Positions 2,139 to 62,147 of a stretch of DNA of 64,000 nt are shown in pieces; the first letter of the stretch is position 1; the number at the start of each line of letters is the position of its first letter. This stretch comes from an uncultured virus (IMG/VR IMGVR_UViG_3300009111_000004) (Duplodnaviria; Heunggongvirae; Uroviricota; Caudoviricetes), in the IMG/VR virus record IMGVR_UViG_3300009111_000004. The stretch is one strand, 5' to 3'. Both the position numbers and the translations under genes were made by a program. A model generated the notes under the pieces. It searched no databases. It had not been told where the DNA came from and saw only the letters and a program-made list of their open reading frames with translations.

Positions 2139-4234
2139 GACTCACTTGTTTGTAATTTACTCATCCCGTTGACTTTAATTACAGTCCATATCTGATCAAA
2201 GTTGATTTGATCTTGAATTTGTGGGTTATGTGTTACAATAATGATAGTACTCTTACCTTTGACTCGCATATGTTCAAGGAAATTGAAAGTAAGTTGAGAG
2301 CTGGCTGTATCCAGATTAGCGATTATCTCATCAAGAAAAAGAGTATTAATCCCAACCCCATGACGATTAGCCAGCTCCCAAAAAGCGCCAATAAATGCCA
2401 ACGTAATTTGTTGTTGCTCCCCTCCACTATATAAGGTAAAGGGAACATCATGTTTTTGCCCCTCACGAACCATGATTTGAATATCAGCAGTAGGCTCACC
2501 ATCAGCTTTCTCACGATATTGAGTTACCCAAATAGATACATTATGGTCGGTAAGAATTAAAACATAATCTCGTAAGACTTGATTTAATTCATCGAGTATG
2601 GTATTAAGTTTCCAAGCCTTAAATCCTTTATCACCAAATAACTTATCTATGGCCTGGCGATATACGATCGCCTCTGAAATTTGCAAGCCACGTGCCGCTG
2701 ATTGCTGAATAATTTTCCGATGGGCGTCGTGCTTTTTCTGCTGTTCGTGCCATATTCGGGTCTTGTCCTCGTATCGCGCTTTTTCTGATAAAAAGGAAAG
2801 GCGCGTCTGGGCCTGTTGATCGATGCGATGTTGCGGGCTATCGCCCGATTTCACCTTCTCATTACGCAATCTTTCAATTTCCTGATTTAATTGATAAACG
2901 TCGACTACTAATTGGTTTATTTGATGATCAATAATACTTTTATTGGCAGAATACTCTACACTTAATTTATCGAGATCGTTTTTAATCCTCTTTTCTTCAT
3001 CTTGATTAAGTAAGATAAGTTTTTCAGTGAGTAGCTTAACTTTCTCTTCCTGTTCCTTAATCTCTATTTGAAGTAGATTTCGATGTCGATTTAGGTGTTC
3101 GATGGTTATTGTAGAGCGGCATCGTGGACATTTACCCGCTCCGGTTAATAATTGTTCTAAATCGAATCGCCGAGCCTGAGCTACCCCTCGATATTCAGCA
3201 ATTTTAGTTTCTAAATTTACTAATTCAATATTTCTAGGGTGATCTTGTATTACTCTACAATCATCAATATATTTTTTAGTCAAAGATTCTAAAGGTTCTT
3301 GTAATTGTTGTTGAAGTATGGTTTTTTGACGGATTATCTGTGTATATATATTAATTTCCTGCTCTAGTATTATTAGTTTCTTATCCCATTCGCATTTTTC
3401 AACGCTGAGTCTAGCAATACTATCGTCACATGTGTCAATTTTTACTTTTAAATCATTAATTTGTGTTTGCCACTCTATTAATTTTTTAGGATCTTGTGCT
3501 TCTAATATAGTTCCACTGGTTCTGAGACCTATCAATTGTGCGTCAACTTTATCTTGTTCAGTTTCTAAGGTATGAATATCTTCTCGTACTTGTTCTACAC
3601 GTTTAGTCCAAACGTGTAGATTGGCGAGATCGGTAAGGACTTCTAGTCGTTCTTTATGGGTGCCTCGAATAAATTTAAGGCTTTGACGTTGTGCCATGTA
3701 TCCTATATTAATGAATTGATCATAATTTAGGCGTAAAATCTCTGTAATTTTACGACGGGTAGCTTTTAGATCCAAACGATAAACACCGCTTTCGGAATTA
3801 GTGTTCCGTTCATCTTTCCAGGTAGATCCGTCCCATCGTTCTAAATATACATCAGTACCGCTATAATACGATCCCTGACTATGCAATTCAGAAGGTTCAT
3901 CATAGTCATCCGGACATTTATCTGTTTTTCGCCATTTCTTAGTGTCTGTAATGCGCCATTTTTGTCCATCGTCGTCTAAGAAAATAATTCGTCCGAATGC
4001 TCTCCCTAAAAATTCATTAATGATTGCTTCGCCTATTTCTCCACTAGGGTTTTTGCCAAAAAGTATCTGGCAAATTGCATTGAAAAAAGATGATTTTCCA
4101 GCTCCGTTACTAGTTGATCCGCGGTCTTGATTGAAGCCATTTAGTAAACATAATCCTTGATTATTCAAAGGGATATTATGATGTACACCATAGCTAAAGA
4201 ATCCTGTTGGATTACAAGAGAGGAGTTGCGGCAT
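2135..4234 (-). CDS. sbcC: SbcC/Rad50/gp46-like SMC ATPase
   Basis: Walker A NGAGKS, coiled coil with CPRC zinc hook, YSGGE signature, LFLDE Walker B, VTH loop. Confidence 0.95.
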   Translation of the reverse strand: MPQLLSCNPTGFFSYGVHHNIPLNNQGLCLLNGFNQDRGSTSNGAGKSSFFNAICQILFGKNPSGEIGEAIINEFLGRAFGRIIFLDDDGQKWRITDTKKWRKTDKCPDDYDEPSELHSQGSYYSGTDVYLERWDGSTWKDERNTNSESGVYRLDLKATRRKITEILRLNYDQFINIGYMAQRQSLKFIRGTHKERLEVLTDLANLHVWTKRVEQVREDIHTLETEQDKVDAQLIGLRTSGTILEAQDPKKLIEWQTQINDLKVKIDTCDDSIARLSVEKCEWDKKLIILEQEINIYTQIIRQKTILQQQLQEPLESLTKKYIDDCRVIQDHPRNIELVNLETKIAEYRGVAQARRFDLEQLLTGAGKCPRCRSTITIEHLNRHRNLLQIEIKEQEEKVKLLTEKLILLNQDEEKRIKNDLDKLSVEYSANKSIIDHQINQLVVDVYQLNQEIERLRNEKVKSGDSPQHRIDQQAQTRLSFLSEKARYEDKTRIWHEQQKKHDAHRKIIQQSAARGLQISEAIVYRQAIDKLFGDKGFKAWKLNTILDELNQVLRDYVLILTDHNVSIWVTQYREKADGEPTADIQIMVREGQKHDVPFTLYSGGEQQQITLAFIGAFWELANRHGVGINTLFLDEIIANLDTASSQLTFNFLEHMRVKGKSTIIIVTHNPQIQDQINFDQIWTVIKVNGMSKLQTSES
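2682..2697 (-). promoter_or_regulatory. sigma54-type -24/-12 motif inside sbcC
   Basis: CGGCACG-TGGC-TTGCA on minus strand vs consensus TGGCACG-N4-TTGCW. Confidence 0.55.
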
Positions 4235-5342
4235 TGTTAATATAACCCAGACCTAAATTTTCTAGTTTTTCTAAATCTAATCCCTTGGCGAGTACAGGCC
4301 CTTGCAATACAAGATAGTCTCGCCATTCATCAGCTTCAGTTCGACGTTCTGGTTTAATAGATGTTGTTAGCTGAATGTCAAAATCCAAACGAATTCGTAC
4401 TACTCGTGCCCTAGTCTCTTCCTTAATTTTGTTTTCCCAGTCATGTGGAATAATTCCATCGAGACTTTTTGAGGTTCCTGATAGATGCAGTTGTACTAAA
4501 TTATCTTTCCATTTGGATCGGTTAATAGTAATTAATTTGATTAAGTCTTCTATTTCATTAATACGAGTATGATGAATAAGGAATTGGGGTGCATGTGATA
4601 AAATGTGACATACCTGGATTTGTTTGATCGGAGTTCTAGAGAGAGTAATTAAACAGAATCCGCGTGGGCTTCCGACATCTCCCCAGTTATGTTGCATCGG
4701 AGCACCAATATAGTATCCGGTAGTATTTTTTAAAGGTAGTTTCTGATGTTTATGATTATCTCCGCCCAAAACTAAGTCAAATTCAGGATAGTCAATCATA
4801 TGATGGCTAATTCCATCTTTAACTGGAGTCTTGTTTTCAAAAGTACTTCCAATAATCATCCCATGGAAAATACAAATATTCCAAGGAATTGATTTATCAA
4901 AGGTAAATTTAGGGATTTCGTGCTCGGCCGGGATAGCGTGTATAGCAATTGGTGTTCCATGTTTTGATGGGACCACCTGGGTCCGAACAGTATCTATGAC
5001 TGTTAGATGTTTTAAGTCTGAGTTATAAAGATTAATATGAGACATCGAATGTCCATTGTGGGCATTCTTAAACCAATAATCATGGTTACCTGATAGTAAA
5101 ATACCAGGAATGCCTAAATCAGATTTCCTTTTAAGGGCGCGATCTGCGCGTTGTCTAGTGATGTCCAATGGGTTACGAGAAACAAAGCGATCACCAAGGA
5201 ATAACCAAAAGTCTACTTGGTGTTGAAGAAGCAGTTGGTATGCTTCTTCTTCAACTGCTTCAACATCATCTCCATTGATTCCATCTTTATATTCATGATG
5301 ATGAATATCTGAATAAGCTAGAAATGAGATAGAATCGTTCAT
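4212..5342 (-). CDS. sbcD: SbcD/Mre11/gp47-like nuclease
   Basis: SDIH, LGD, GNHD, HG, GDNH metallophosphoesterase motifs; adjacent to SbcC. Confidence 0.92.
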   Translation of the reverse strand: MNDSISFLAYSDIHHHEYKDGINGDDVEAVEEEAYQLLLQHQVDFWLFLGDRFVSRNPLDITRQRADRALKRKSDLGIPGILLSGNHDYWFKNAHNGHSMSHINLYNSDLKHLTVIDTVRTQVVPSKHGTPIAIHAIPAEHEIPKFTFDKSIPWNICIFHGMIIGSTFENKTPVKDGISHHMIDYPEFDLVLGGDNHKHQKLPLKNTTGYYIGAPMQHNWGDVGSPRGFCLITLSRTPIKQIQVCHILSHAPQFLIHHTRINEIEDLIKLITINRSKWKDNLVQLHLSGTSKSLDGIIPHDWENKIKEETRARVVRIRLDFDIQLTTSIKPERRTEADEWRDYLVLQGPVLAKGLDLEKLENLGLGYINNAATPLL

Positions 5343-5343
5343 A

Positions 5344-6684: not shown

Positions 6685-6933
6685 TTATCCACGTTTGGAT
6701 CCTACCCATTTGATTGCATCTTCTATGTCTAGTTTATACTCTGCAGCAATACTGAATAGAACGAATAGAGTATCTGCTAATTCTTTCTGAGGATCGCCTT
6801 TCTTTCCACGAAGCGATTCAATAAATTCTGATGCTTCTAGATGTAGATAACACCCACCATGGCTCCAGTCTCTTTTCCATCCTTTAATCTTAGAGTATTC
6901 CAATGCTCGCCGCGCAGCTACATTAGCATTCAT
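6685..6933 (-). CDS. MazG-like nucleotide pyrophosphohydrolase (single domain)
   Basis: ExxE...ExxD pattern: LEASEFIE...KELADTLFVL. Confidence 0.85.
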   Translation of the reverse strand: MNANVAARRALEYSKIKGWKRDWSHGGCYLHLEASEFIESLRGKKGDPQKELADTLFVLFSIAAEYKLDIEDAIKWVGSKRG

Positions 6934-7172: not shown

Positions 7173-7519
7173 TAATCTTCCTTTAGGTTAAAATGTTTAG
7201 TCATGTTTCGATAAGGCTTACTGGCTTCAATGTTTTTAAGTAGTATATTGACCATTCGACTTGTTTCAGTCATAGTTGGTATTAATGTAGATATATTAGT
7301 GCGCACTATCCCATCATCGATTCTAGATAGTTGTTCGGACATAAACTGACAATTGTCGAGGGCAACTAAATACTGACGTAGACGACGAACTACGTCCAAT
7401 AATTCTGCATCGGAAATTGACTGCATTGCTTCTATCACAGAATTAGATGGCAAGGGCATAATTTGCTCTCCCGCAAGAACGGAGGGCGCTATAATCCTCC
7501 GGACGTAAATAGGTAACAC
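7172..7519 (-). CDS. Hypothetical protein
   Basis: ORF between dnaE and the zinc-ribbon gene; true start probably near 7459. Confidence 0.5.
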   Translation of the reverse strand: MLPIYVRRIIAPSVLAGEQIMPLPSNSVIEAMQSISDAELLDVVRRLRQYLVALDNCQFMSEQLSRIDDGIVRTNISTLIPTMTETSRMVNILLKNIEASKPYRNMTKHFNLKED

Positions 7520-10500
7520 TACTTAATATAACTAGGCATCCTTGATGTAGAATTGGTTCAGAAACCGTACCAGTAGCATTTAATATAGTCATAATGCGAT
7601 TAGCTGTAGGGACATCTTGAGCATAAAAACTGCTTATAGGAATACCATTTTTGGCTAAGATTGGAAATACTGCAGATACATTTAATTGATTGTCACCTGG
7701 TCGGAATTTATCTTCTTTAACTTGTCCCACTAAGAAGGCCAGTTGGTTATCTAATAATTGTGTGTTGGCCCGCGTAGCTAGTGGACTCCAGATATTGATC
7801 ATGTGTCCATCTATATGGTCGGCGATTCGTAGCTGTAGAAAAGGATCATTGTTTTTGGTGGTCTTCATCGTACGTTGTTCAACTACCCCAAATAAAATAG
7901 CACGGGTGCCCGGCATTTGATCATTGAGTTGACTCGGGGTAATGAAGTTGATATTCGGAAATAGCCCAAGTAGAGGTTGGTATTGCATTACCGGATGCGA
8001 AGATATATAGAAATTGAGTACACCCTTCTCTAGTTCTAGTCTCTCAGTTTCTAGATAATCTATCGGCCATGGGGTTATAACCTTTAGCACTTCAGTTCTA
8101 ATGTCTGTTAATGATAATTTATTTTGGAATTTCTTAATTAATCTTTGGATAACTTCAGTGTTTTCAACCTTACTTTTTTGATTGATAGATGGATCCCAAT
8201 TGAATGCTCCTGCTTTTACCAAATTTTCTTTAGTGAGCTTAGTTACCTTACTATAGGGAGCCATACGAATACAAAAGTCCAAATAATCAACATATGGCCC
8301 ATTCTTAACTCGTTCTTTTAAGATTGGTTCTACCGCTGCCTCTCCAAGTTGCCTAATTGAATAAAGGCCCATATATATGTTTTTACCATCTGTATGAAAG
8401 TAAGATTGCGAATTATTGATATGAGGTGGCTGTAACTTCACACCTTTTTGGAGTATAGACGATAAAAGGATTTTGAGCTGATCTGAATCGTCTAGATTAA
8501 CATTTAATAAGGTAGTATAGTATTCGGTTGGATAGTGAGTCTCCAACCATGCAGTCACATAAGATATAAAACTATATCCTACTGAATGACCTCGATTCCA
8601 ATTGTAGCGGGCCGACCCAGCAAGACGTCTGGTTACATCATCCATGAATTCTTTTGAATATCCATTTTGGATGCCACGTTGAACTAATTTTTCTTGCACA
8701 GCTTTAAATTTAATAGCGTCCTTTTTTCCGATAGCAGCCCGATATTCATCTGCCTCCTCGTCGTTGAAGCCGCCAAGGATTTTTGATAACTCCATGATTT
8801 GTTCCTGATAAAGAGCGATACCGAAAGTATCGGCAAATATCTTATCTAGATTAGTATGCCAACTAGTGACTGGTTCTCGTCCGTGTCTACGTTCAATGTA
8901 GTCATCTACCATACTTTTACCATTTGAACCAGAACCGGGTAGCAGAGGACCAGGTCGGTAAAGTGCATTTAGAGCTACTAAGTGGTTGAAGCACTCTGGT
9001 CTTAATGCTTTGGTCGTAGCCCGGATGCCAGGACTATCGTATTGGAAGACTGAAACAAATTTAGTTTCGGCTACGGTGGTATAAGTTGCGGCATCATTTA
9101 ATGAGATACATTGATAGTCATCAATGACTTGTCCATAACGCTCATTAACTAAATTTATGGTTTTTTGAATTAAGTCGAGAGTACGTAGACCTAACATGTC
9201 TAGTTTTAATAGACCTAATTCTCCTAGATCACGCATATCATATTGTGTGACTAGATGGCCGTCTTTAGAATCTCGTAGAAGAGGTACATGGTTGATAATG
9301 GGATCATTAGAGATTACAATTCCTGCTGCATGTTCGCCAAGGTTTCTATTATTTCCCTCTAGACGTTTAGCAACGTCGATCCAATCTGGGGTCTGAGCCA
9401 TTAATTCGCGAGCAGTCTTATTTCCATCTAATACTTCTTCTAGGCGATCATCTTTTGAGAGATCACCTAATAATTTACCTAGACTTTTTCGTACCGCAGA
9501 TGGAACTCCTAACCCTCGTCCAACATCATCAGCTGCACCTTTAGCTGCCATTGACTGGAAGGTAACAATCTGGGCAACCCGGTCCTTTCCATATTTATCT
9601 ACAATATATTCGATTACTTCTTTACGGCGTTCCTTAGAAATATCTGTATCAATATCTGGTAGATCTTTACGGCCTTCATTAATGAATCGACTGAAAGGTA
9701 GATTATGTTCAATAGGATCAAGTCCAGTAATATACGTACAATAGCACACTAATGATCCCATAGAGGATCCTCGGCCAATTGGCTTGATTATACCACGTTT
9801 CCCCATGGCATCTACAATGTCAGCAATGATTAAGAAATAAGAAGAAAAGTCTTTTCTTCTAATCATGTTTAATTCGAATTCTAGACGTTCTCGGTGAAGT
9901 TTACTCTCTCCTAGTCCACGAGTACAAAGACCTTGGAAGGTTTTAAAATAGAGAAGTTCATGGCAGGTCTCGTTATCGATAACATTTCCAAGCTCATCTC
10001 GATAGCTTGGAATAATTGATTTCTTAGTCTTAGAGACTAGAGAAAATCCATAATCGTCTACACGTTGTGCGATATTTAGAGTAGTGGTTAGAGCATGTTC
10101 AGGAATACATGCAGTTTCTGCGGTTGTATACATTTCTTGTGGGCTCTTGAACCAATATCCACTACCAGGAAATGTCCATCTTTCAGCACTTTGGATATTT
10201 TTACCTGTCCCGATGGCAAGTATTACCTCATGAGCTAGTGAGTCACTTTGTTCAGTATAATGGGAGTCGCCCGTCATTACGATTCCAATGCCCCGTATTT
10301 TTCCAAAGTCAATCAGGGCGTTTCGAACAATCTCCTCTTCTTCTATATTATGATCCATTACTTCCAGATAAAAATCCTCTCCGAAGAGATTGCGCATTCG
10401 ATCGATCTCTTCTAAAGCTTTGGCTTGATTGCCAGCTACAATTAATCGTGAAGTACGAGAGGCAAGACACCCGGAAAGGACAATAAGTCCGTCTTTATAT

Positions 10501-10925
10501 TTAGTTAGAATCTCATCGTCAATTCTAGGTTTATAATAGAACCCCTCTCTATAAGCAAGAGTGGATAGTTGTTTTAGATTTTCATATCCAGTACGATTTT
10601 TGGCTAATAAGGTAAGATGATAATAAGCCGAACTGAGATCCCCGTTTTTGGCGTTTTCTTGTGCTTCTCCTTTTTTAGTATAAGTACGCCCGAAACGGGA
10701 ATCAGGAGCCACATACGTTTCCATACCAATTATGGGTTTAATTCCGGCATCTGTACATTGTTTGTAAAAGGAAATAGCATTATGCAAATTACCATGTTCA
10801 GTAATCGCTACGGCAGGCATCTCGAATTCTTTAGCCTTTTTAACTAAATCTTCTCTACGTGAGATCCCATCTAGTAGACTAAATGTGGTATGCACATGTA
10901 AAGATACGTAAGATTTATGATCCAT
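7443..10925 (-). CDS. dnaE: DNA polymerase III alpha subunit (family C)
   Basis: PHP domain (LHVHTTFSLLDG, GCL, DSHY), GRGS, PDIDTD catalytic motif, HAAG, KLDMLGL, YQEQIM, C-terminal OB fold; likely start MDHKSY at 10925; no intein seen. Confidence 0.97.
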   Translation of the reverse strand: MDHKSYVSLHVHTTFSLLDGISRREDLVKKAKEFEMPAVAITEHGNLHNAISFYKQCTDAGIKPIIGMETYVAPDSRFGRTYTKKGEAQENAKNGDLSSAYYHLTLLAKNRTGYENLKQLSTLAYREGFYYKPRIDDEILTKYKDGLIVLSGCLASRTSRLIVAGNQAKALEEIDRMRNLFGEDFYLEVMDHNIEEEEIVRNALIDFGKIRGIGIVMTGDSHYTEQSDSLAHEVILAIGTGKNIQSAERWTFPGSGYWFKSPQEMYTTAETACIPEHALTTTLNIAQRVDDYGFSLVSKTKKSIIPSYRDELGNVIDNETCHELLYFKTFQGLCTRGLGESKLHRERLEFELNMIRRKDFSSYFLIIADIVDAMGKRGIIKPIGRGSSMGSLVCYCTYITGLDPIEHNLPFSRFINEGRKDLPDIDTDISKERRKEVIEYIVDKYGKDRVAQIVTFQSMAAKGAADDVGRGLGVPSAVRKSLGKLLGDLSKDDRLEEVLDGNKTARELMAQTPDWIDVAKRLEGNNRNLGEHAAGIVISNDPIINHVPLLRDSKDGHLVTQYDMRDLGELGLLKLDMLGLRTLDLIQKTINLVNERYGQVIDDYQCISLNDAATYTTVAETKFVSVFQYDSPGIRATTKALRPECFNHLVALNALYRPGPLLPGSGSNGKSMVDDYIERRHGREPVTSWHTNLDKIFADTFGIALYQEQIMELSKILGGFNDEEADEYRAAIGKKDAIKFKAVQEKLVQRGIQNGYSKEFMDDVTRRLAGSARYNWNRGHSVGYSFISYVTAWLETHYPTEYYTTLLNVNLDDSDQLKILLSSILQKGVKLQPPHINNSQSYFHTDGKNIYMGLYSIRQLGEAAVEPILKERVKNGPYVDYLDFCIRMAPYSKVTKLTKENLVKAGAFNWDPSINQKSKVENTEVIQRLIKKFQNKLSLTDIRTEVLKVITPWPIDYLETERLELEKGVLNFYISSHPVMQYQPLLGLFPNINFITPSQLNDQMPGTRAILFGVVEQRTMKTTKNNDPFLQLRIADHIDGHMINIWSPLATRANTQLLDNQLAFLVGQVKEDKFRPGDNQLNVSAVFPILAKNGIPISSFYAQDVPTANRIMTILNATGTVSEPILHQGCLVILSSVTYLRPEDYSALRSCGRANYALAI

Positions 10926-10926
10926 A

Positions 10927-11172
10927 TTAATGTGATATATACATCGAGAGTATGGTGCCCATACAACTACCAATTGCGACTGCGATCAATAGTATTGGTT
11001 TACGAGCATATTCAATTACAACTATTCCACCCAACACATGAATGAAGGCTCCAACCAATACTGCAATAAATACCTGATTAGCATTAACAGCCTTAATATA
11101 AAATACCCATAAAAAATCGCATGCTGCAATTCCTAAAACCACTAAGCACCACAATTTAACCTTAAAACTCAT
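10927..11172 (-). CDS. Small membrane protein
   Basis: 81 aa with about three hydrophobic segments. Confidence 0.6.
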   Translation of the reverse strand: MSFKVKLWCLVVLGIAACDFLWVFYIKAVNANQVFIAVLVGAFIHVLGGIVVIEYARKPILLIAVAIGSCMGTILSMYISH

Positions 11173-11327
11173 CGATTTATTTCTCGCTCGAATGATCTAT
11201 AAACAGCAGTAACGATCTTACTTAGACGTTCATCTATGATTATAATATTAGTACTAGCTATTAATGAATTAGTAGCTCCGATCACTGCATTATATCTTTT
11301 TCCTATTTATAGTCAGGATAATTTAGA

Positions 11328-12502
11328 TTAATAGGTGGATCCATTCTGGTCATATATAAAACCCAGTTTTGCGAGATCAAATCCTAGTTTTACGAGAAAC
11401 TCGTCCAAACTCATTGTATGACGATAAGTACAACCAGGCTGATAATACAAAGCTCGTGCCTCCAATAAGCCATTTGGAATTATTGGCCAGCGATTTAATA
11501 AAACATGATAAGTACTATTACTATCAGGATCTTCAATGCGCTTCTGATAGGTAGTAGTTCGTACTAATTCACCTTCTTTGGGGAAGCAAATTTTATCGAA
11601 TCTAACCCAACCATTTTCATATCGTTCTTTGGTCCTAAATTCTTTAGCTTTGTAGGTATGCATCGAAGCCAGTCTTTTGAAGGAAATCAACTAGAGTTAT
11701 TGACTGTCTATAATCAGTCTGCTTCCAGGCCACACAAGCATTTAATAATCCTGGTGGAGCCATTTGTCGTTTACTCCATCTATCAAATTCATCTTTACTA
11801 GTGATTGGATTAAATCCAGTGGAAAATCCAGCCCAGTAATTCTCAAAAATATATAAAACTTCAAAAATTACATGCTCCATACCATTTAAATCTAGATTCG
11901 TGATATTAGTTATGAATATTTGTGGTGTGCCTTGTGGTGTCATCGAATTAACTCGATTTCATGTTGAATAATATGACAATAATCATCATATGAGATTATA
12001 TTAGCTCGCCATTGTTGGTAGAGCATGGAGGTTACAATTGACCACTCTTTGAAAGTCAATGGGTATTCCTTACCACCACAAGATTCGCCTTCTATCCATC
12101 CACAGTGTAAGCAGATGTATTCGTTAAAGTCCCTGGAATAATGGAGTTCACGATAGCAGTTTGGGCAGCTTCCAAATCGGTAAGTTGAATGCCACATTTA
12201 ATTAGAAAGGTGTCAAAGGGAAGATTATAGTTAGTAGTACACCATAGATTATATAATTTTCTAAATCGCCAATCACGTATGTAAAATTGATCTAAGCCAT
12301 AATCCCAAAGCTGAATAGCATAGTCCGTAATCATATGCGGATAACCTATACAAGTTATCCATGTTAGGTTATCCATGTCCTGTTTAGTCAGTATTTGATA
12401 ATGACATAGGGTTTGATCGGAACTTGAAGATATATGACTAATAGCATAGTTTCTGATTGGTCTTAAGAATTCTGTGTGCTCTGCATTAGACATGGAATGC
12501 AA
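11328..12502 (-). CDS. Cluster of hypothetical proteins (11328-11690, 11644-11943, 11940-12197, 12092-12502)
   Basis: Overlapping ORFs. Three share an end motif (LDEFLVKLGFD / LVDFLQKTGFD / FDTFLIKCGIQ); 11940-12197 is a CxxC-CxxC zinc ribbon. Confidence 0.5.
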
Positions 12503-15458: not shown

Positions 15459-15507
15459 ATTATTAATTATCCTTACTTTATCAAATATTATAACTTAAGT
15501 CGAATCA

Positions 15508-18201: not shown

Positions 18202-18361
18202 CAGTTTTTTCTAAAGCATTAAGCCTTTGAAATGAATCACAAAGTGCTGCAATAATAGCAGCTAGCCCTTCTTCCTGTTCATTTGATGGATCAAATTCTA
18301 TGTGGATATCCAATATCTCTTGAGTACTATTCATTACTTGTTGACTAGCATTAATAATCAT
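18173..18361 (-). CDS. Hypothetical protein
   Basis: 62-aa ORF with ATGA overlap. Confidence 0.45.
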   Translation of the reverse strand: MIINASQQVMNSTQEILDIHIEFDPSNEQEEGLAAIIAALCDSFQRLNALEKTVDLYEKATK

Positions 18362-41581: not shown

Positions 41582-41617
41582 AACGTTTTACCTGAGGCGG
41601 CTTACTACTTCAGATTT

Positions 41618-41633
41618 TGCAAGGCCCGTGCTT
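41618..41633 (-). promoter_or_regulatory. sigma54-like motif (AG instead of GG at -24)
   Basis: AAGCACG-GGCC-TTGCA, intergenic, ~36 nt before ATG at 41581. Confidence 0.45.
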
Positions 41634-41701
41634 TGATTTTAGGTTGCCGGCGTGAATTTTCAGTATACTATATATTAGATCCAAAACCGGGGAGCCATCA
41701 A

Positions 41702-42595
41702 ATGAACGTTTCAGTTAAGAACCTTACAGCAAACTTACTTTCCACTGACGTTGGGCTGCTTAATCCCGGAGAGACTAAGGTCATGACAATGGGTCCCGCT
41801 GCGGGCTATAGGACTGCTGAGGGTCTAAAGACATTGTCTGATGCTGGTAAGGTGCAGGTAATTGTTACTGAGGAAGCAAGTAAGCTTGATGCTATGGAAC
41901 CTGCAGCCGTTGGTACAGCTTCGGTAGCCGATGGTGCAGTAACCACCATTAAATTAGCTGATGGCGTTCTAGCTGCTAGTGTTGCTGGTAGAGCGAAAAT
42001 GGCTGATAGCTTTTTTACTGAGGCTACTGTTGATAGTAAGTTTGCGGCTGGGGCTATTAACGGCAATAAATTAAAGGATGGAACGATCACCACTGCGAAG
42101 TTTGCAGTTGGATCTGTCGACACTACAGCTCTAGCTGCGAGCGCGGTAACTGCGGTGAAGATCGAAGAGCAGGTGTCGCAGGTATCAGCTGACGTTATTG
42201 TCTCGTCTGCCGAATTATTAGCTCTTAGCGCCACTCCAAAGACTTTGATTGCAGCACCTGGATTAGGGAAGGCGATCGTATTTGAAGGAGCAGTTCTTTT
42301 TTTGGATTACAACTCAATTGCCTATGCCGGAATTGTAGCTGGAACGGACCTATCATTTAAGTATACTGACGGATCTGGTTTGGCTATAGCTGGTTGTGAG
42401 ACTACAGGATTCCTCGATCAGGTAGCGGATACTATGCGTTATGTGCGACCTACTACTACAGCTTCTGGTGTTTCTGATCAGGTGGTAGTCGCCAATGCTG
42501 CCCTAGTGCTTCACATGTTAACAGGAGAGATTACTACAGGGAACTCTCCTGTTAAGGTTCGCGTGTACTATCGCGTAGTACCTACGATTCTATAA
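41702..42595 (+). CDS. Probable virion structural protein (fibre/decoration type); only convincing plus-strand gene
   Basis: Repeats of the ADGAVTTIKL / DGTITTAKF / ASAVTAVKI type; Ala/Gly/Thr-rich; GGGAG RBS before ATG 41702. Confidence 0.7.
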   Translation: MNVSVKNLTANLLSTDVGLLNPGETKVMTMGPAAGYRTAEGLKTLSDAGKVQVIVTEEASKLDAMEPAAVGTASVADGAVTTIKLADGVLAASVAGRAKMADSFFTEATVDSKFAAGAINGNKLKDGTITTAKFAVGSVDTTALAASAVTAVKIEEQVSQVSADVIVSSAELLALSATPKTLIAAPGLGKAIVFEGAVLFLDYNSIAYAGIVAGTDLSFKYTDGSGLAIAGCETTGFLDQVADTMRYVRPTTTASGVSDQVVVANAALVLHMLTGEITTGNSPVKVRVYYRVVPTIL

Positions 42596-44807: not shown

Positions 44808-44914
44808 TTGATCCCAATATTATAATTAAATTAGGTCTTTGGCGGAGATGGGTTGTACCATCGACCCATGCTTATTAAGAGTGTGCTTACTTACTATAGC
44901 TCTACGTCAGCACT

Positions 44915-44975
44915 ACCAGCACCATACTAACTGACTTTGTGATATTACAAATTCACCAGTTAGTATGGTGCTGGT
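44915..44975. repeat. Perfect 19-bp inverted repeat (long hairpin) just downstream of the MoxR gene
   Basis: accagcaccatactaactg ... cagttagtatggtgctggt, with an inner tttgt/acaaa stem. Confidence 0.9.
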
Positions 44976-44987
44976 TTAGGGTGATTG

Positions 44988-46136
44988 CTACGGATTCATC
45001 GCCTTCATGGCAGTACCAACGGTCTTCATTACCCTGGTCTGAGCCCGATCCGCCTTTTCCCACATTTCATGCTTTTTCCAGTCCTTCAAATTACCCCATC
45101 GACCCAGGGCATGAGAGGCAGCCACTCGAATCTCGACGTTTTGACCTTGTAGACGGTCGCAGTAGATCCAAGCCGGACAAGGATTCTCCATGGCCACCTG
45201 AACCATGACCCCAATCACTCCTACCCCGGCGTTGGTATTGTCTGGAACCTTTGCGGTTTCAGGATTGGTCAAGATCTCCTTCACGCTAGGCAGTTGATCC
45301 CTTATCTTGCGGATCGTCATATACGCAGCTGCAGTAGTCTCACCCACATTGCCAGCTAGCAGAGCAGCGAACAGTGGACTATTATCTCGCTCCCCACTCT
45401 TCAGAGCCATAGCACAGACTTCAATGGCTCGCTCCCATGATCGTGGAGCACCCCAGTTCTCGCCCTTTTGCGATGCCCCAGCTGGTGGATTCATCACGAT
45501 GAGTTCTGGGGCCGCTTCCAGGGTTGCCGCGAGATCGACGGCCAACTGTCGTATGAAGGGCTCGTTCGGCTTGAAGTTGTAGAAATACTCTTTGATTTCA
45601 TCAAGTCGTGGGATGAGCCTGATCATAGTCATCCGTCCGATCAGTGGTAGTGCCACCTCCCAACCACCTGCAGCTTGATCGGGTGGATTCATCGCTGTTA
45701 CTACGCGGGTATCTGGATGGAGCTTCTGATCACCAGCCCATCGTTCGTAGACCAATCGCATGGCGGCACCCTGAACTGCAGGTGAGGCGCAAGATAGCTC
45801 ATCCAGAAAGAGGATAACACCTTGCTCGCAGGCTCGCTTGATTGGCCCAAGTGGGAGACGGTCAATCATTCCACTCTCTCCAGAGAGAGAGGTGACTGGA
45901 AACCCACCGATATCAGTAGGATCACATAGTGAAAGGATCAGTGGCACCAGGGGAAGTTTCAGTTCCTTAGCTACCACTCCCGTTATGGCAGATTTGCCGA
46001 CTCCTGGAGGTCCGATCAAGTTAATCGGTTGGTTCGCGAGGATGGAATATTTAAGGGCCCGTATGGCGTGTTCGATGTCTACGACATCGATTCCACTCCA
46101 CTTGCTGTCTGCCTGAATCCTATTGCTCATCTTCAC
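44988..46136 (-). CDS. MoxR-like AAA+ ATPase
   Basis: GPPGVGKS, DPTDIGG, LFLDE, AMNP, LIGR, PRSWE; AGGAG RBS. Confidence 0.92.
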   Translation of the reverse strand: MKMSNRIQADSKWSGIDVVDIEHAIRALKYSILANQPINLIGPPGVGKSAITGVVAKELKLPLVPLILSLCDPTDIGGFPVTSLSGESGMIDRLPLGPIKRACEQGVILFLDELSCASPAVQGAAMRLVYERWAGDQKLHPDTRVVTAMNPPDQAAGGWEVALPLIGRMTMIRLIPRLDEIKEYFYNFKPNEPFIRQLAVDLAATLEAAPELIVMNPPAGASQKGENWGAPRSWERAIEVCAMALKSGERDNSPLFAALLAGNVGETTAAAYMTIRKIRDQLPSVKEILTNPETAKVPDNTNAGVGVIGVMVQVAMENPCPAWIYCDRLQGQNVEIRVAASHALGRWGNLKDWKKHEMWEKADRAQTRVMKTVGTAMKAMNP

Positions 46137-46700: not shown

Positions 46701-47604
46701 AATGTGTCCAATTGGTTGGGTTTTATTTTGGTTAGGTATTCTTGTAAAGTAAGACCTGCGTAGGGGCCGTCATTACCACTAGCTACCTTCCGATAGGTTT
46801 CGATTGCTTTTTCGACCCATGGTTCCACATAAATATCATAATTAGTGGCGACTGTCATATTACTAACCCCTGCTAGGCGAGCAATTAATCCGTCATGAAA
46901 TTTAATTTTTTGAGCCCTTGTCCAGTCGCTTGGATCTCATCGCGTTTTATCAAACATTCGGGATGTTGTAGATGTTCATCAATGCGCTTTGCTTCGACCA
47001 GCGTTTTACACTGAGTACAATATTGAGCTTGAATAAAGTGAAAAACAATAATCTCAGCTTGTGAAATTAATGGTTCCTCTGAGGGAATTTGTAATATTTT
47101 TCTGCTCGTAGGTATCGATCCATGCATATATCCATTATTATCGATACCTACGACCCAGTCATGTTCAGATATACTATTATTACCTAGATGAATGAGCACG
47201 TCTTCATTTTGCATTCGGGCCATACACAAGCAACGCAGAATCTCATCCTGTTGTTGTACGGTCGATTTATAATCACCTGGGCGTAACCTACCTCGTTTAG
47301 TGAATTCCTCTGAAATATTGGTACTCACCCCACATGAGCGAGTAGAATTCATCCAGTCCATAGACTCAGTGTTCATCTTTGCGCGGCAAATCTCATTAGC
47401 ATATTCCTCTAATTTCTGATTAACAGTTTTGAGTGTGACTTCCAACTCAGCTATTTTATGATTATAAATAAGTCCGTCATTGAACGGGTCAGAAGGCGGA
47501 TGATAGGAATGATACCTACCTTCTTGATCTATACTGGAATCACGCCTGCTGTTCAGATAGTCACGACTGCAAAGGTAGTGATTACCGTCTATTGGACTAA
47601 TCAT
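46697..47604 (-). pseudogene. Zn-finger paralog family member split by a -1 frameshift near 46897-46911
   Basis: After KKLNFMTD* the -1 frame reads HDGLIARLAG...ATNYDIYVEPWVEKAI...YAGLTLQEYLTK, matching paralog C-termini and ending in an ATGA overlap at 46697. Confidence 0.75.
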
Positions 47605-47634
47605 CGTTACGCGCGGCTCCCCTCAGCTAAGAAC

Positions 47635-47650
47635 TGCAAGCGCCGGGCCG
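47635..47650 (-). promoter_or_regulatory. sigma54-type promoter
   Basis: Intergenic CGGCCCG-GCGC-TTGCA, ~30 nt before ATG at 47604. Confidence 0.65.
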
Positions 47651-47659
47651 CCGCCATAG

Positions 47660-51054: not shown

Positions 51055-52521
51055 TCAGATTATATTGTATTTCGCAGAATCACTGACCTTTTCCACTATT
51101 TCTTCTATTTCATCATTAGCTTCTTCTAGATCATTACTAATTTGTTTAATTTGTCCAGTAATTAAATGACTAATAATCTTTACTATGGTTTTGACTATTG
51201 CAGCTATAATCTTAATTGGTGCCGCTATAATCTCTCCAATAAAATCAGGTAGTCCCATTATTGTCCTCAAGTAGTCTGAACTGCTCTATCTGATTGGTTT
51301 CAGTATTAACTACAGCAGCAATAAATCCTCCACCTGTGGACCTACGGCCACATAGACCATTCAGGATACCTAGTAGGCCAACAGTATGTATATTCGACGT
51401 AGTATCAGCAATAATTTGGACTGTTGGATGATCAGCTAACTCTTTGGTGCAAGGTACTCGATGTTCCACTAAAGCATAGATTGCATCTGGTGATAATCTT
51501 AATAGGTCATTAAGGAAGTTTACTATTTGTTGTGCAAGTTGAAGATTGGTTGTTGTGGTCATCGGGACAATTAATCCATTTAAAGAGAAAGGTATGTAAG
51601 TCTTGATAATCAAGCCATCTATTGTTGCTATTAACAATTAATGTATAAACTTCAATTGCAGTAATGATTGGTTCAGGGATAAAGATCTGATACATCTTTC
51701 CCCAGATACCATGAAGACAATATAATACATATTCAATTTGCAGTTTGTCGAGGGCAGGTATAAGTTTTCCATCAACAAACTGCATAAAATCTAATTCTCT
51801 AGAACATATACGCCTGACCGCCGTCGCCCCCCGGAGATTTTGCAAGCCCCGCGCCGGGGCTACTTGATCTACGAAAATCCAAAAGTTACACCATTCTTTA
51901 TGATCAAAGAAGGGTCCTGGTAGGGGATTTTTAAGGCGTTTACATTTAGGACATAAGTCACGGCCACCAAAATCCATTTGGTTTACGATAGTTGGGGTAA
52001 GGCCCCAGTGTTTCAAAAGCGCCTTTGATGAAAGCTTGCTGAGTTTGAACATAGTCGTCTCGACGACGTTTCCTGGACTTCTTTTTCTTCCAAAAATGGC
52101 TATTATTATTATGGTTAACTTTTAGCCATGGATTAAATATAATACCTTGTACGGTGATTGGGCTTTTAGGAAGATAATTCTTAATGAGATCTTCGATTTG
52201 TTCACGGGTAGTGGTCTTATGTCCTTTTATGTTTTGATAATATATTGGTTCTACGAACTGTTGTTCTAGGCATATTCGATGACTAGTAATAACTGGTCTG
52301 GTAGTTATTGGCCAAGTGTTGATGGGCCAATAAGAACAGTCAGACTCATCTGGAGCAACGCCACTTTGACCTATGATCAAACAAGGTACACCTAGAATTC
52401 CGTGAGCGATCAGTCCATAAATTATGCTCATGGACTGATCGCTTTGATACTGAGCCCTACTATCCACCCATTTACATGGGGGGCCGATTTTAAAATGACG
52501 AAGCCGATAAGTTCTTGACAT
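51055..52521 (-). CDS. Hypothetical proteins (51055-51270, 51245-~51562, 51510-52052, 51958-52521)
   Basis: Contiguous ORFs; 51510-52052 has CPKC..H...C and IFIPE..I.AI like the Zn-finger paralog family. Confidence 0.5.
51841..51856 (-). promoter_or_regulatory. sigma54-type motif inside a CDS
   Basis: CGGCGCG-GGGC-TTGCA in a GC-rich patch. Confidence 0.5.
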
Positions 52522-52531
52522 ATAATCTAAT

Positions 52532-57930: not shown

Positions 57931-60123
57931 TTAGATGTCGATACGCTTCTCGCTGAGTACGAACGTGAAGATCTGTCCATTCACGTCAATAGTAGTACTA
58001 TCTGCGCGTTCTGTGACTCCATCCCACCACCGCTTACCAAGCACCACCGCAAACTTCGTTCGCTGGATCTGGCTTCGGATGTCTGCCAGAGTTGCCTTTA
58101 CCTGTTCGATCCGATAGTCGAGCTGCTTGATTTGCTCTGTCTTCTTGAGGGTAGAGAGGCTCTTGTCCCACTTGGCCAATACCTTGCCCATAACCTCAGC
58201 ATTGGCCGTCAGAGTCCTTTTGGCCTTCAGCCTATCCCGAACCTCCGCCACCTTCGGGAACGAGGAAAAGCCTTTGGCTGCAATCTTAAATTCCTTCGCC
58301 ATATAGTAATCTGTATGGGCCTGATCCTCGGTCGGCGGGTTAAACCCATTGCGAGTCACCCCGATCTCCTTGAGGAATTCCTCCTGACCTACTGAGAGTG
58401 TAGTACCTAGGCCACGTTCCTCTTGTGGCTCAATTTCCTCCCGTAGAGCCTTGAGGACCTTGAGGGTGGCTTGTGCTTCCAGTTCATTGGCCACCTTCAT
58501 ACAAAGGTCTTTAGCGGACGTTAGTCCATCTGCAATAGCCCGGTTGATCACTGGGATACGATTTAGGTGTAGAGTATAGACCCTGCCTTGGTAGTGTCGA
58601 TTGTGTTCCTGGTCGATTACGCCCTCAACCAAGAACCGCTCGTAAGTAGCCTTGCTCATGCTAATCGGTAATGTCGGGGTATTGAGGAATCCGTCCTTGA
58701 CGACTGTGTAGTTACGCCACACGAATGTTTCGTAGGTATTACCCTTAAATCCAGCGTCAGCCCAGCCCTTTGGAAGCTTAATGACACCAGGAATACGGCA
58801 CAACACCGACAGGTTGAGTTGAGTCTGGTTCCACACCAAATCAACCAGTGGTACACGAGTGTTCTTGTCGGGTTCGAATTCAGGGTAGCCTGGCTTGGTC
58901 TTGCTGGGCACCCCGATCCGATTATATCGGAAGTCAGGATGATATGGCTGGAACTCGGCCTCCGGGTCCTGCATCAACAAATCCATAGCGTCTAGGAGGC
59001 AGAACGCGTCTCGCTTGGGTAGACAGCCTACCTTCTTTCCGGCGAGGTACCGCTTCTGCTTGGAGCCAATGGCGTCAAGGATCGCCTGCTCCGCCGCGCC
59101 GTACTCAGCATTAGTAAATGCATTTGAGATTTGAGTCACTAGGCCCGTATCACCGAGCGCCGACATAATCTCCAGAGCCTGGTCCATCTTGGCCCGCTGG
59201 ATTAGTACCAGGGCCGCCGCATAGCTGGCCTTAATCCAGTGCTCACTGGTGTTAAGGCCATGGGTTCCGTGCTCCAGAGCGAGGTTTAGAGGGACCTCTC
59301 CCGATCCTTTCGGCTTTTTGTCTGTAATGATGTAGATCTTATCATTACCCTTCTTACTCGGGGTGAAGGTGATCTCACCGGACTCCGCCGGGTAGACCGC
59401 CACTTGGCCATCTGTCAAGCTAAACACCGCGCCGTCCTTGGGTGGGAGTGTTTCAAGCTGGATCAGAATACGACGCCGCCGATTCCGTGCCTTATCCATG
59501 AAGTCGGAGAGGATGGGTGGGAACGTACTTAGGTCAGAGGAGTGAATGACCTGACCTCCAAACCGTTCGGCCATGTCGATGAGTAGTTCCTTGTTGTAAT
59601 AGTTACCGTATCCAACCACTAGGCTGGAGGTGACCTCACCGCCCATCGCTTTGATGGCGTTTCTGATGTCCTTAATCTCCTGCGATACTGGCGAGACCGT
59701 CGGATATCCGTCTGTGAGGAATGTTAAAGCAAAGACGTTACTTAGTGGTTTTAGGTCAATTACTACCTGCTTGCAGTCGGCCAGGATCTCCGAGAAACAG
59801 GTCATTCCGATAGCGTAGCTGTTCTCGTCGAGAATTTTCTCTAGTTTATGATCCTCGTGGCCGGTAATCTTATAGCCCTTGAGGACAAAGCGGAACTCGT
59901 TTCGTCCAGAGAACCAGCCTAGACTGATGGTATCTCCTACTGGGATTGTCTTGAGCCTCTCCTTTAAGTCATTGATTAGCTGCGGGAGCGCCCCACACAT
60001 GCTCCCTGAGCGGTCATACATCAAGATGTGATTTACGTTGGTTGAGATTGAGGACTGACCTTGATCCGGGACCTGTTGTTGGACCAGGTAAAGGTTTTTA
60101 TTGAACTTCAGATATTCTTGCAT
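57931..60123 (-). CDS. Large VWA-domain protein
   Basis: DRSGSM MIDAS, T, FLTDGYP, VGYGNYYN; AAGGAG RBS; visibly higher GC. Confidence 0.85.
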   Translation of the reverse strand: MQEYLKFNKNLYLVQQQVPDQGQSSISTNVNHILMYDRSGSMCGALPQLINDLKERLKTIPVGDTISLGWFSGRNEFRFVLKGYKITGHEDHKLEKILDENSYAIGMTCFSEILADCKQVVIDLKPLSNVFALTFLTDGYPTVSPVSQEIKDIRNAIKAMGGEVTSSLVVGYGNYYNKELLIDMAERFGGQVIHSSDLSTFPPILSDFMDKARNRRRRILIQLETLPPKDGAVFSLTDGQVAVYPAESGEITFTPSKKGNDKIYIITDKKPKGSGEVPLNLALEHGTHGLNTSEHWIKASYAAALVLIQRAKMDQALEIMSALGDTGLVTQISNAFTNAEYGAAEQAILDAIGSKQKRYLAGKKVGCLPKRDAFCLLDAMDLLMQDPEAEFQPYHPDFRYNRIGVPSKTKPGYPEFEPDKNTRVPLVDLVWNQTQLNLSVLCRIPGVIKLPKGWADAGFKGNTYETFVWRNYTVVKDGFLNTPTLPISMSKATYERFLVEGVIDQEHNRHYQGRVYTLHLNRIPVINRAIADGLTSAKDLCMKVANELEAQATLKVLKALREEIEPQEERGLGTTLSVGQEEFLKEIGVTRNGFNPPTEDQAHTDYYMAKEFKIAAKGFSSFPKVAEVRDRLKAKRTLTANAEVMGKVLAKWDKSLSTLKKTEQIKQLDYRIEQVKATLADIRSQIQRTKFAVVLGKRWWDGVTERADSTTIDVNGQIFTFVLSEKRIDI

Positions 60124-60942: not shown

Positions 60943-60975
60943 TTGACCAGGCATCCGATCCATTGGTTTAATCAA

Positions 60976-61500
60976 TTATATGATTTCAGCGATCTTTGCA
61001 TGCATCTTCAATGCCATTATATGATGTATTTGTCGAAGTCCTACTGATTTAAAACCGATTTCTTTGAAAAATCGTTTTAAATGGGGGTTAATTACATGAA
61101 CTGTACATGATTGTGCATTACGAAGACTGCCTAGATAAATCAATGTCCGAATCAAATATCGTGCTAGTCCTTGACGACGATAATTAGGATGAATTTCGCA
61201 GACATAAATGTGGAGGCTGCGTCCAATTAGATGACCAGCGCAGAATCCTATAACCATGACCCTTTGGGCTATATCCCGCGCTAGCAAAGTTAGCCAGTTA
61301 GGATTGTTGAATAGATTTTTGATATCATTGCGAGTATCCCGCATCTGGGGATCCCAGCAAATAGCTTGTAGTTTAAGAATGCTGTCAATTTCCTGAGGGG
61401 ATGGAGACGTGGAGAAGATTTGAATATTAGTAGAGGTAGCTAATATGGCCTTTACTCGATGGCGAGATTTATGATAGTGAAGAGTGCCAGGACGTATCAT
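60976..61500 (-). CDS. GNAT-family acetyltransferase
   Basis: IHPNYRRQGLA acetyl-CoA motif, N....FFKEIGF. Confidence 0.85.
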   Translation of the reverse strand: MIRPGTLHYHKSRHRVKAILATSTNIQIFSTSPSPQEIDSILKLQAICWDPQMRDTRNDIKNLFNNPNWLTLLARDIAQRVMVIGFCAGHLIGRSLHIYVCEIHPNYRRQGLARYLIRTLIYLGSLRNAQSCTVHVINPHLKRFFKEIGFKSVGLRQIHHIMALKMHAKIAEII

Positions 61501-62072
61501 CGATTTCGTTGTTCTACCAAGAGTTTAATCAATTCTGCATCGTAAAGAGAACCCTCATAGCGGAAAACTCGTTCGTGTTTAAAATTAGTATTCCAACGTT
61601 GAGCTGGCATAATCACCAATCCGCGTTGACGAACGTTGAGCCAGGGCTTAATGTAGTCGGGCCAGTCATCTACTAAGATACGACCATAAACCTGAGATTT
61701 TAAATCGGTAGTAATTGTGACCTTAGCGTCTGGGATGTATTTGGCGGCCCATCGAACCTTTTGTTCCCAAGCCGAATAGTTATGTTTGGGGCCACGAGTT
61801 AGAATACTTAACCGAAATCCGACTTGACGTAGTAGATCAACAACGTGCATCCCATGAGAAAGAGGTTCTAGATTGAACCACCAGTCTGGTTGGGCTTTGA
61901 TGAGATCTCGTCTGGCTTTGATATGAGGGTACTTATGCTCATCTTCAGTATCTAATAGTGGTATTTCCCCCGGAGCCATGAGCTTGAGAAGATCTCGCTG
62001 CATAGCTTGGTCAAATTGTGCGGTGCTACCATCAATATCGATGAGTGCGACTGGCTTACGTTTAGTAGACAT
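61497..62072 (-). CDS. HAD-family 5'(3')-deoxyribonucleotidase-like protein
   Basis: IDIDG, LT, K..W, K, ILVDD, WN. Confidence 0.85.
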   Translation of the reverse strand: MSTKRKPVALIDIDGSTAQFDQAMQRDLLKLMAPGEIPLLDTEDEHKYPHIKARRDLIKAQPDWWFNLEPLSHGMHVVDLLRQVGFRLSILTRGPKHNYSAWEQKVRWAAKYIPDAKVTITTDLKSQVYGRILVDDWPDYIKPWLNVRQRGLVIMPAQRWNTNFKHERVFRYEGSLYDAELIKLLVEQRNR

Positions 62073-62131
62073 CTTAGTCCTAATTATTACGGATATACTT
62101 ACTTGGCGCAGGCTCCGCTCGCCCCTAAGAT

Positions 62132-62147
62132 TGCAAGTCGCGGGCCG
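62132..62147 (-). promoter_or_regulatory. sigma54-type promoter
   Basis: Intergenic CGGCCCG-CGAC-TTGCA; downstream leader resembles the one at 47611-47634. Confidence 0.65.

Follow-up and report, generated by a model that had tools for sequence, protein, structure and literature searches.

Phages are known to be transcribed through host sigma-70, through sigma factors of their own or through polymerases of their own. Promoters of phage polymerases of the T7/SP6 type start with GGGAGA or GAAGAG, some of the promoters read by the T7, SP6, K11 and Syn5 single-subunit RNA polymerases contain GGGCAC, and single-subunit polymerases require a fixed distance between the conserved block and the start. 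PeSLs consist of a sigma-70 early promoter and a stem-loop. The consensus of sigma-54 promoters, attributed to Barrios et al. 1999, is reportedly TGGCACG-N4-TTGCW. A full-text search of the literature returned no description of a sigma-54-dependent promoter class in a phage genome. In excerpts of the E. coli study of Bonocora et al. 2015 (PMC4591121), GG and TGC are the five important positions of a sigma-54 promoter, transcription starts 11 nt past the last base of the motif, and in some sites position 2 is C or position 6 is G (e.g., the OA03 row). PeSLs are characterized as mobile promoter cassettes of T4-type phages in the parts consulted of Arbiol et al. 2010 (PMC2839356) and Comeau et al. 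2014 (PMC4122927). As far as the available text of two further reports goes, some phages may interact with the sigma-54 system: gp2 of Pectobacterium phage Q19 scores 94% to sigma-54 in HHpred (PMC7693777), and Htm of Mosigvirus resembles an enhancer-binding protein without GAFTGA (bioRxiv 10.64898/2026.10.06.757011).

Whereas those two reports, in the text available, concern proteins, we describe here a candidate promoter class in the genome of an uncultured wetland phage. The window, i.e., the whole stretch of DNA analyzed, is 64,000 nt long and represents part of the phage genome, with genes for replication and nucleotide metabolism only; these include PurZ-like and DnaE genes, and the phage is of the lytic (virulent) type. 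No homologue of the Q19 gp2 or Htm kind was detected in the window. The six GC-rich 16-mers listed by an earlier note were all found where it had placed them, as reverse complements on the minus (coding) strand, which carries nearly all genes of the window. The scan against shuffled sequence that it had suggested bore out their enrichment: GCNNNNNNCTTGCA gave six matches, all on the minus strand, where 1.20 were expected, and six or more were obtained in 0 of 100 shuffles. A looser pattern, [GA]GC.C.{5}TTGC[AT], matched seven times on the minus and once on the plus strand (∼0.5 expected per strand; at least seven in 0 of 200 shuffles). The short core alone was not enriched in the window, either as CTTGCA (22 matches versus 26 expected) or as GCTTGCA (5 versus 4.9). 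When nhmmer profiles were built with one site left out, the omitted site was the top nontraining match in all six runs, with E values from 0.0012 to 6.5.

The GC-rich cassettes are ∼55 nt long, with a 16-mer as the upstream half of each, and the genes downstream belong to accessory and nucleotide metabolism groups. The first cassette (62097..62151, minus strand) carries CGGCCCGCGACTTGCA at 62132-62147, with a predicted +1 near 62121 and a GC-rich leader; its 16-mer lies 59 nt ahead of the ATG of an NT5C-like 5'-nucleotidase gene (61500-62072), with a GNAT gene next in line. The third (47600..47654, minus strand; CGGCCCGGCGCTTGCA at 47635-47650, predicted +1 near 47624) occupies nearly the entire 55-nt gap, 30 nt ahead of the ATG of a 239-aa gene (46888-47604), the first of a run with MoxR-like AAA, VWA and dCMP deaminase genes. 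The fourth (41583..41637, minus strand) has AAGCACGGGCCTTGCA, without GG, at 41618-41633 and a predicted +1 near 41607; it stands 36 nt ahead of the ATG of a 366-aa gene with no assigned function (40484-41581), in a divergent gap opposite the sole plus-strand gene (about 41702-42595). The fifth (31716..31770, minus strand; TGGCACTCGACTTGCA at 31751-31766, predicted +1 near 31740) is found directly downstream of the ribonucleotide reductase gene (31903-33753) and 42 nt ahead of a 93-aa ORF (31430-31708), after which comes the PurZ-like gene (30277-31434). This order is the part that stands of the earlier suggestion that purZ is among the sigma-54-driven genes.

The measured distances of these four sites, 30 to 59 nt, agree with the earlier placement of four 16-mers in intergenic gaps 30 to 60 nt before start codons. 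The second cassette (51806..51860, minus strand; CGGCGCGGGGCTTGCA at 51841-51856, predicted +1 near 51830) falls formally within a long ORF call (51510-52052); since translation could begin 55 nt downstream, at an in-frame ATG (51785) that would open a 91-aa ORF, this site is probably intergenic as well. The sixth (2647..2701, minus strand; CGGCACGTGGCTTGCA at 2682-2697, predicted +1 near 2671) is truly intragenic, inside an SbcC-like gene (2138-4234) and 543 nt before the next start, and could be an internal promoter. By the crude ORF calls made in this analysis, intergenic gaps of at least 25 nt sum to just 3,474 of the 64,000 nt (5.4%), so that the presence of four to five of the six sites within gaps is far from random. 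The six-site family is real, strand specific and nonrandom in position.

Within the cassettes, the 16-mer is followed by 4 to 10 AT-rich nucleotides, a G/purine run and then GCCGCC..CA[AG]GTAA. The A+T fraction is 0.63 at positions +1 to +9 after TTGCA versus 0.30 within the 16-mer, and G is conserved at +10, +11 and +13 after TTGCA, around the predicted +1. The spacing between the 16-mer and the purine run is variable. The conserved block reaches ∼35 nt past the 16-mer, with CA[AG]GTAA present at five of the six sites, and AGTAAG/AAGTAAG is the most enriched intergenic word overall (8 occurrences versus 1.03 expected). Two pairs of sites share additional sequence, namely TCTTAG..GGAGCC at 62132 and 47635 and CTTGCAAAATCT at 41618 and 51841. 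The cassettes are located among genes of higher GC content (0.50 to 0.56) than that of the window (0.38).

For comparison with sigma-54 promoters we used a consensus fixed beforehand, N-TGGCAC-N5-TTGCW, with GG and TGC required and at least 9 of the 11 specified positions matched. It yielded 12 matches on the coding strand versus 2 on the other, and 300 shuffles gave a mean of 2.3 and a maximum of 7. With other spacers (N1 to N4 and N6 to N10), zero to five matches were obtained on the same strand, the codon-phase-preserving spacers N2 and N8 giving two each. The sigma-54 resemblance thus depends on spacing and strand alike. Five of the six sites pass this test; the site at 41618 fails, AG replacing GG. 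Eleven positions are matched at 31751, 10 at 2682 and 9 at each of the other four, the score of 41618 having been counted by hand.

As in bacterial sigma-54 promoters, GG and GC are 10 bp apart (GC in 6/6 sites, GG in 5/6), GGC-C-G and TTGCA fall at equal positions, and the sites lie on the coding strand, four or probably five of them 30 to 60 nt before genes. All five important positions are kept in five of the six sites, while three of the four spacer columns (the N4 of TGGCACG-N4-TTGCW) vary, the fourth being an invariant C. The positions conserved across the six sites appear, by sequence, to be largely those read by sigma-54, and most of the variable ones belong to its spacer. Applying the E. 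coli rule puts the predicted start directly on a G at four sites, and no site has it more than 1 nt away from a G. The single intragenic phage copy would also have its counterpart in E. coli, where intragenic sigma-54 sites are common according to the excerpts of Bonocora et al. 2015 (PMC4591121). There are differences from the bacterial promoters, too. The motif occurs in the genome of a virulent-type phage with 38% GC; T at -26 is retained in one of the six sites and is mostly replaced by C, and A at -22 is present in three; and the conserved C before TTGC (-16), the GC-rich flanks and the leader block GCCGCC..CA[AG]GTAA are not sigma-54 features.

Regarding the machinery, the 64-kb window contains neither the RpoN homologue nor the phage enhancer-binding protein that the earlier note had proposed to look for: no PF00158-type match, GAFTGA loop or RpoN box was found in any frame, and the sole AAA+ protein of the window is MoxR/midasin-like. 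The window likewise holds no RNA polymerase, no DFDGD catalytic motif and no sigma factor, including the phage sigma factor that the note had named as counting against its reading. No activator element is shared by the 200-nt regions preceding the six sites: 38 8-mers recur in at least five of them, versus 30 to 487 in 30 random control sets. The sigma-54 reading of the earlier note holds as a sequence match, whereas its functional side found no counterpart in the window. A host activator, or one without a DNA-binding domain, is possible. The small size of the family, with six members, and its absence from the PurZ relatives likewise count against sigma-54 recognition.

Our tentative preference, held at nearly even confidence, is that the six elements are sigma-54-type promoter cassettes. 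Copies of the ∼55-nt GC-rich cassette at the heads of accessory and nucleotide metabolism gene groups would serve as promoters, with the upstream 16 nt acting as a -24/-12 element (GG, 10 bp, GC, within GGC-C-G...CTTGCA). Host core RNA polymerase with sigma-54 would form a closed complex on the 16-mer, and an ATP-driven enhancer-binding protein, of the host or encoded outside the window, would open the AT-rich 4 to 10 nt past TTGCA. Transcription would then start ∼11 nt past TTGCA, at a G, producing a purine- and GC-rich leader 20 to 50 nt ahead of the start codon. We infer the promoter role, sigma-54 recognition, the start position and the acting activator from the DNA sequence.

The main rival of the sigma-54 reading has the cassette serving as a promoter for an RNA polymerase, single subunit or other, or for a sigma factor, that the phage encodes outside the window; the likeness to sigma-54 promoters would then be coincidental. 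The layout, in which a conserved block is followed by a short AT-rich segment and a G/purine-rich initial transcribed sequence, indeed resembles that of the T7, SP6, K11 and Syn5 promoters, but the phage block would lie at -26 to -11, compared with -17 to -1 in theirs, and its variable distance of 4 to 10 nt to the purine run is at odds with the fixed spacing that single-subunit polymerases need. The motif being private to this phage, and absent in its PurZ relatives, would fit such a promoter, as would the lack of an enhancer-binding protein and of an upstream activator sequence in the window. No polymerase, sigma factor or DFDGD motif was found there, either; yet the window is limited to replication and nucleotide metabolism genes, so that much of the genome lies outside view. 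Under this rival, the exact sigma-54 spacing and the match at the informative positions would both be chance, and we consider it unlikely, though to be taken seriously.

The elements might also be no promoters at all. They could be operators for a phage regulator or mRNA leader signals acting in processing, stability or translation, with the promoters located further upstream. Since the genes are codirectional with tiny gaps, the element would be part of read-through transcripts, and both the conservation that extends ∼35 nt past the 16-mer, including CA[AG]GTAA, and the intergenic enrichment of AGTAAG/AAGTAAG would be in line with a leader function. A common fold is absent, however, and the CTTG/CA[AG]G helix does no better than in shuffles; the motif is asymmetric, which most operator sites are not; and the variable 30- to 59-nt distance to the start codon rules out covering of the ribosome site as the mode of action. 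We regard this explanation as quite unlikely. Still less probable, in our estimate, is that we are dealing with selfish or recombinogenic GC-rich repeats, left at the boundaries of horizontally acquired gene cassettes and without a transcription role of their own. The extra similarity within the pairs 62132/47635 and 41618/51841 suggests duplication, the surrounding genes are GC rich relative to the window, and the cassettes occupy whole intergenic gaps, but the copies do not delimit the GC islands, and the uniform orientation of all six, their placement before start codons and their promoter-like conservation are unexpected for neutral remnants. A repeat origin would, moreover, fit with a mobile promoter cassette rather than exclude one.

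Other readings of the elements were tried and rejected. A conserved -10 hexamer 16 to 18 nt past TTGCA, as a sigma-70 promoter would have, is missing in four of the six sites; generic sigma-70-like sites are not enriched in the window (59 versus 53 expected), and each strand has 59 copies of TATAAT. A structured RNA was dismissed, with 0 matches in Rfam and 0 in a tRNA scan. Single-sequence folds were inconsistent over the six sites (z-scores of -2.3 to +1.2), the RNAalifold consensus structure consisted of a 3-pair stem only, and the CTTG/CA[AG]G helix was 76.5% paired versus 78.1% in shuffles. The terminator reading was rejected because no T-run follows the elements. To the extent that the PeSL reports were available, the putative cassettes resemble PeSLs as short repeated promoter units, positioned at the boundaries of genes in variable accessory regions, with signs of duplication. 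They differ in that the promoter half is -24/-12-like, the -10 box is missing in those four sites, and a stem-loop is not consistent.

If the sigma-54 reading is true, which would be unusual for a phage, the cassettes would be compact, portable 55-nt promoter units. An enhancer-dependent host system with tight off/on control would then govern accessory genes, among them the one for 2-aminoadenine synthesis, which would imply that an activator of the phage or of the host acts as a developmental switch. A further, testable question would be how a fully base-modified genome gets transcribed. Sigma-70 needs a flipped-out adenine at -11; sigma-54 reads mostly G/C in the major groove, and opening is driven by an ATP-dependent activator, so that sigma-54 would suffer less from triple-bonded Z:T pairs and from Z at -11. 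That a virulent PurZ phage, probably carrying 2-aminoadenine in place of adenine, recruits host sigma-54 polymerase via portable GC-rich -24/-12 cassettes is nevertheless an idea that we rate as improbable. If true, it would make these cassettes the first such promoter class in a phage and would connect the sigma factor used with the modification of DNA bases.

A search with the profile of all six sites recovered no seventh copy in the window, the next match having an E value of 2.4. A weak putative candidate, GGCACGAGCTTTGTA (11438..11465, minus strand), within an ORF call, was the next-best match in 7 of 12 leave-one-out runs (E of about 5 to 24, never significant) and the third nonfamily match in the full-profile search.

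Among 50,697 phage records there was no near DNA match to the window, and blastn of two cassettes against phages gave chance matches only (E = 7). The 366-aa, ribonucleotide reductase, NT5C and 239-aa proteins had 0 loci in viral_contigs, where the last 60 nt of the window had no match either. The earlier idea of a sigma-54-rich host gained no support; ribonucleotide reductase homologues in genome_contigs were at most 46% identical and came from many phyla. DNA contigs from four runs belonged to this phage and were invariant at the sites. A search with PurZ returned 1 viral locus and 20 metagenome loci, and the cassette motif was absent before purZ in all of them; PurZ relatives at 56 to 78% identity lack it. 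A distant relative with a complete 41-kb genome (L001) had no Sigma70_r2 match. Before purZ, at least one of these loci (L011) carries a sigma-70-like TTGACA-N17-TACAAT, and two others (L005 and L018) have sigma-70-like boxes that are less clear.

We found the six GC-rich 16-mers of the earlier note, beginning at 2682, 31751, 41618, 47635, 51841 and 62132, all at the positions and on the minus (coding) strand where it had placed them. In the window, the pattern GCNNNNNNCTTGCA matched 6 times against 1.2 expected (six or more in none of 100 shuffles), and a slightly wider pattern matched 7 times on the minus and once on the plus strand, against ∼0.5 per strand (seven or more in none of 200 shuffles). 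Since the short core of the 16-mer was not enriched in the window by itself, the signal sits in the bipartite motif. When profiles were built from five sites, the omitted one was the top nontraining match in all six runs at both window sizes, albeit with modest E values (0.0012 to 13). The profile search found no seventh copy in the window; the next-best match in 7 of 12 leave-one-out runs, at 11438-11465, was never significant.

Alignment of the six copies on the 16-mer revealed that conservation reaches beyond it, and we conclude that the 16-mer belongs to a real, oriented element of ∼55 nt, the cassette, that lies upstream of genes. About 4 GC-rich nucleotides precede the 16-mer (cGGC.CG.G.CTTGCA), which is followed by an AT-rich stretch of 4 to 10 nt (A+T of 0.63 at +1 to +9), a G/purine run with conserved G at +10, +11 and +13, and a GC-rich block ending in GCCGCC..CA[AG]GTAA in five of the six copies. 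Some pairs share extra identity, TCTTAG...GGAGCC at sites 62132 and 47635 and CTTGCAAAATCT at sites 41618 and 51841, which suggests that the copies arose by duplication rather than independently. The cassette may also be mobile, by analogy with the PeSL cassettes described for T4-type phages (PMC2839356, PMC4122927). AGTAAG/AAGTAAG was the top enriched coding-strand word of the intergenic regions, seen 8 times, in 6 gaps, where 1.03 occurrences were expected; it was also present outside the six cassettes, at 15459-15507, 11173-11327, 44808-44987 and 39501-39665.

Gaps of at least 25 nt total only 3,474 of the 64,000 nt by crude ORF calls, and the cassette of site 47635 occupies almost all of the 55-nt gap at 47605-47659. 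The distance to the start codon was 42 nt for site 31751, 36 nt for 41618, 30 nt for 47635 and 59 nt for 62132, in agreement with the 30 to 60 nt claimed for four sites. Downstream of site 51841, at a distance of 55 nt, an in-frame ATG stands at 51785; the site is covered by a long, probably overextended ORF call that shares 95 nt with the preceding gene. Site 2682 lies inside an SbcC-like gene (2138-4234).

The window was scanned with the textbook sigma-54 consensus, N-TGGCAC-N5-TTGCW, and circularity was therefore avoided. Requiring GG and TGC, the five positions called important by Bonocora et al. (PMC4591121), together with a score of 9 or more out of the 11 specified positions, we observed 12 matches on the coding strand and 2 on the other, compared to a mean of 2.3 per strand (maximum, 7) in 300 dinucleotide shuffles; the enrichment over shuffled background that the earlier note had proposed checking is thus present on the coding strand. 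Altering the spacer to N1-N4 or N6-N10 left 0 to 5 coding-strand matches, with 2 each for the codon-phase-keeping spacers N2 and N8. Five of the 12 matches are sites of the family, and site 41618 misses on GG alone. The other seven, on the minus strand with canonical spacing (61001, 35066, 30994, 29829, 28060, 27328 and 4944), are all intragenic, lack the cassette and are mostly AT rich (30994 is not), a mild excess over the 0 to 5 for control spacers. Variable columns of the family fall mainly in the sigma-54 spacer, at three of its four positions. Under the E. coli rule, by which transcription begins 19 bp from the motif centre, 11 nt past the last base (PMC4591121), the predicted start would fall on a G at four sites and next to a G at two. 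By sequence, the conserved half of the cassette is a match to a -24/-12 promoter with correct spacing.

That the six cassettes are sigma-54-type promoters is nevertheless a tentative reading, to which we give slightly less than an even chance. Sites, strand, consensus and spacing speak for it; against it stand the lack of an activator or RpoN in the window and of a common upstream word, as well as the absence of the motif from the loci of PurZ relatives. The phage bEBP or RpoN homologue that the earlier note had suggested seeking was not found within the 64-kb window: Pfam, PHROGs and NCBIfam searches, with Pfam also run at E values up to 0.1, recovered no RpoN, enhancer-binding protein, sigma-70-family factor or RNA polymerase there, and the window contains no DFDGD motif and, in any frame, no GAFTGA-like loop or RpoN box. 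Despite a weak PspF match (E = 3e-4), the AAA protein at 44991-46136 is MoxR/midasin/RavA-like. Shared words in the 200 nt preceding the six sites did not go beyond those of 30 random control sets, and sigma-54 does not account for the GC-rich flanks and downstream block of the cassette.

The main rival, unlikely in our estimate, is that the cassette serves as promoter for a polymerase or sigma factor which the phage encodes outside the window; with its AT-rich gap and the purine-rich start behind it, the cassette is reminiscent of T7-type promoters, but its conserved block stands at a variable distance from that start. Distinctly less probable is an operator or mRNA leader element; a structured RNA found no support: Rfam and RNAalifold returned nothing, single-sequence folds were inconsistent, and a proposed helix was no better than shuffled partners. 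The sigma-70 reading fails because four of the six sites have no -10-like hexamer 16 to 18 nt after TTGCA. We consider a repeat without a role in transcription still less probable than an operator or leader element, and a purely selfish repeat unlikely, since all six copies share one orientation and placement before start codons. Full-text searches of the literature outside subscription journals returned no paper that describes a class of sigma-54-dependent promoters in the genome of a phage; the nearest items were a predicted sigma-54-like protein of Pectobacterium phage Q19 (PMC7693777) and the enhancer-binding-protein-like Htm protein of a Mosigvirus (bioRxiv 10.64898/2026.10.06.757011).

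Judged by its Pfam, PHROGs and NCBIfam matches, the window is a phage replication and nucleotide-metabolism region, with a DnaE-type polymerase (7446-10973), a primase-helicase (18361-21066), RecA (26811-27938) and ribonucleotide reductase (31903-33753), all on the minus strand, as well as SbcCD, ThyX, dUTPase, RNA ligase, DNA ligase, and a MoxR-like AAA ATPase with a VWA partner. Comparison with 50,697 phage records gave no near match at the DNA level, and the closest protein matches had 34% identity; the DNA was found in wetland metagenome runs, with short identical pieces in one freshwater run. Overall GC content is 38%; the genes for the MoxR-like ATPase (45000-46000) and for a 730-aa protein (58000-60000; VWA-like N terminus; phrog_2426, E = 4e-125) have 50 to 56% GC and look like recent horizontal acquisitions. 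A 429-aa phage protein (476-1762, minus strand) gave a partial match to bacterial trigger factor well below the family cutoff (TIGR00115, E = 2.6e-16). All credible genes are on the minus strand except one (41702-42595; protein P0001, N terminus MNVSVKN...), which has raised GC content, reversed GC skew and weak PHROG tail-fibre matches (E = 8e-9) and is divergent from the gene behind the cassette at 41583-41637.

The PurZ-like adenylosuccinate synthetase homologue (30277-31434, minus strand; phrog_1211, E = 1.5e-41) is accompanied in the window by a short MazG-like ORF (6688-6933). Since no HD-type, DatZ-like dATPase was recognised in these 64 kb, the window alone does not establish a full 2-aminoadenine pathway. 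The cassette motif was absent from 20 metagenome loci with PurZ relatives (29 to 88% identity over the matched part; GC, 0.31 to 0.52), and in at least one of these (L011) purZ is preceded by a clear pair of sigma-70-type boxes, TTGACA-N17-TACAAT. On a 187-kb metagenome contig (L006, 9551-10020), the PurZ match begins only at query residue 45, and the DNA ahead of it, in a frame guessed by eye, seems to end like an intein C terminus (…VSHN), so that this purZ may be interrupted by an intein. In three loci with 50%-GC PurZ relatives (L008 to L010, ∼9550-9880), an opposite-strand gene lies immediately upstream of purZ; its DNA looks repetitive and collagen-like, reminiscent of the plus-strand gene beside the cassette of site 41618.
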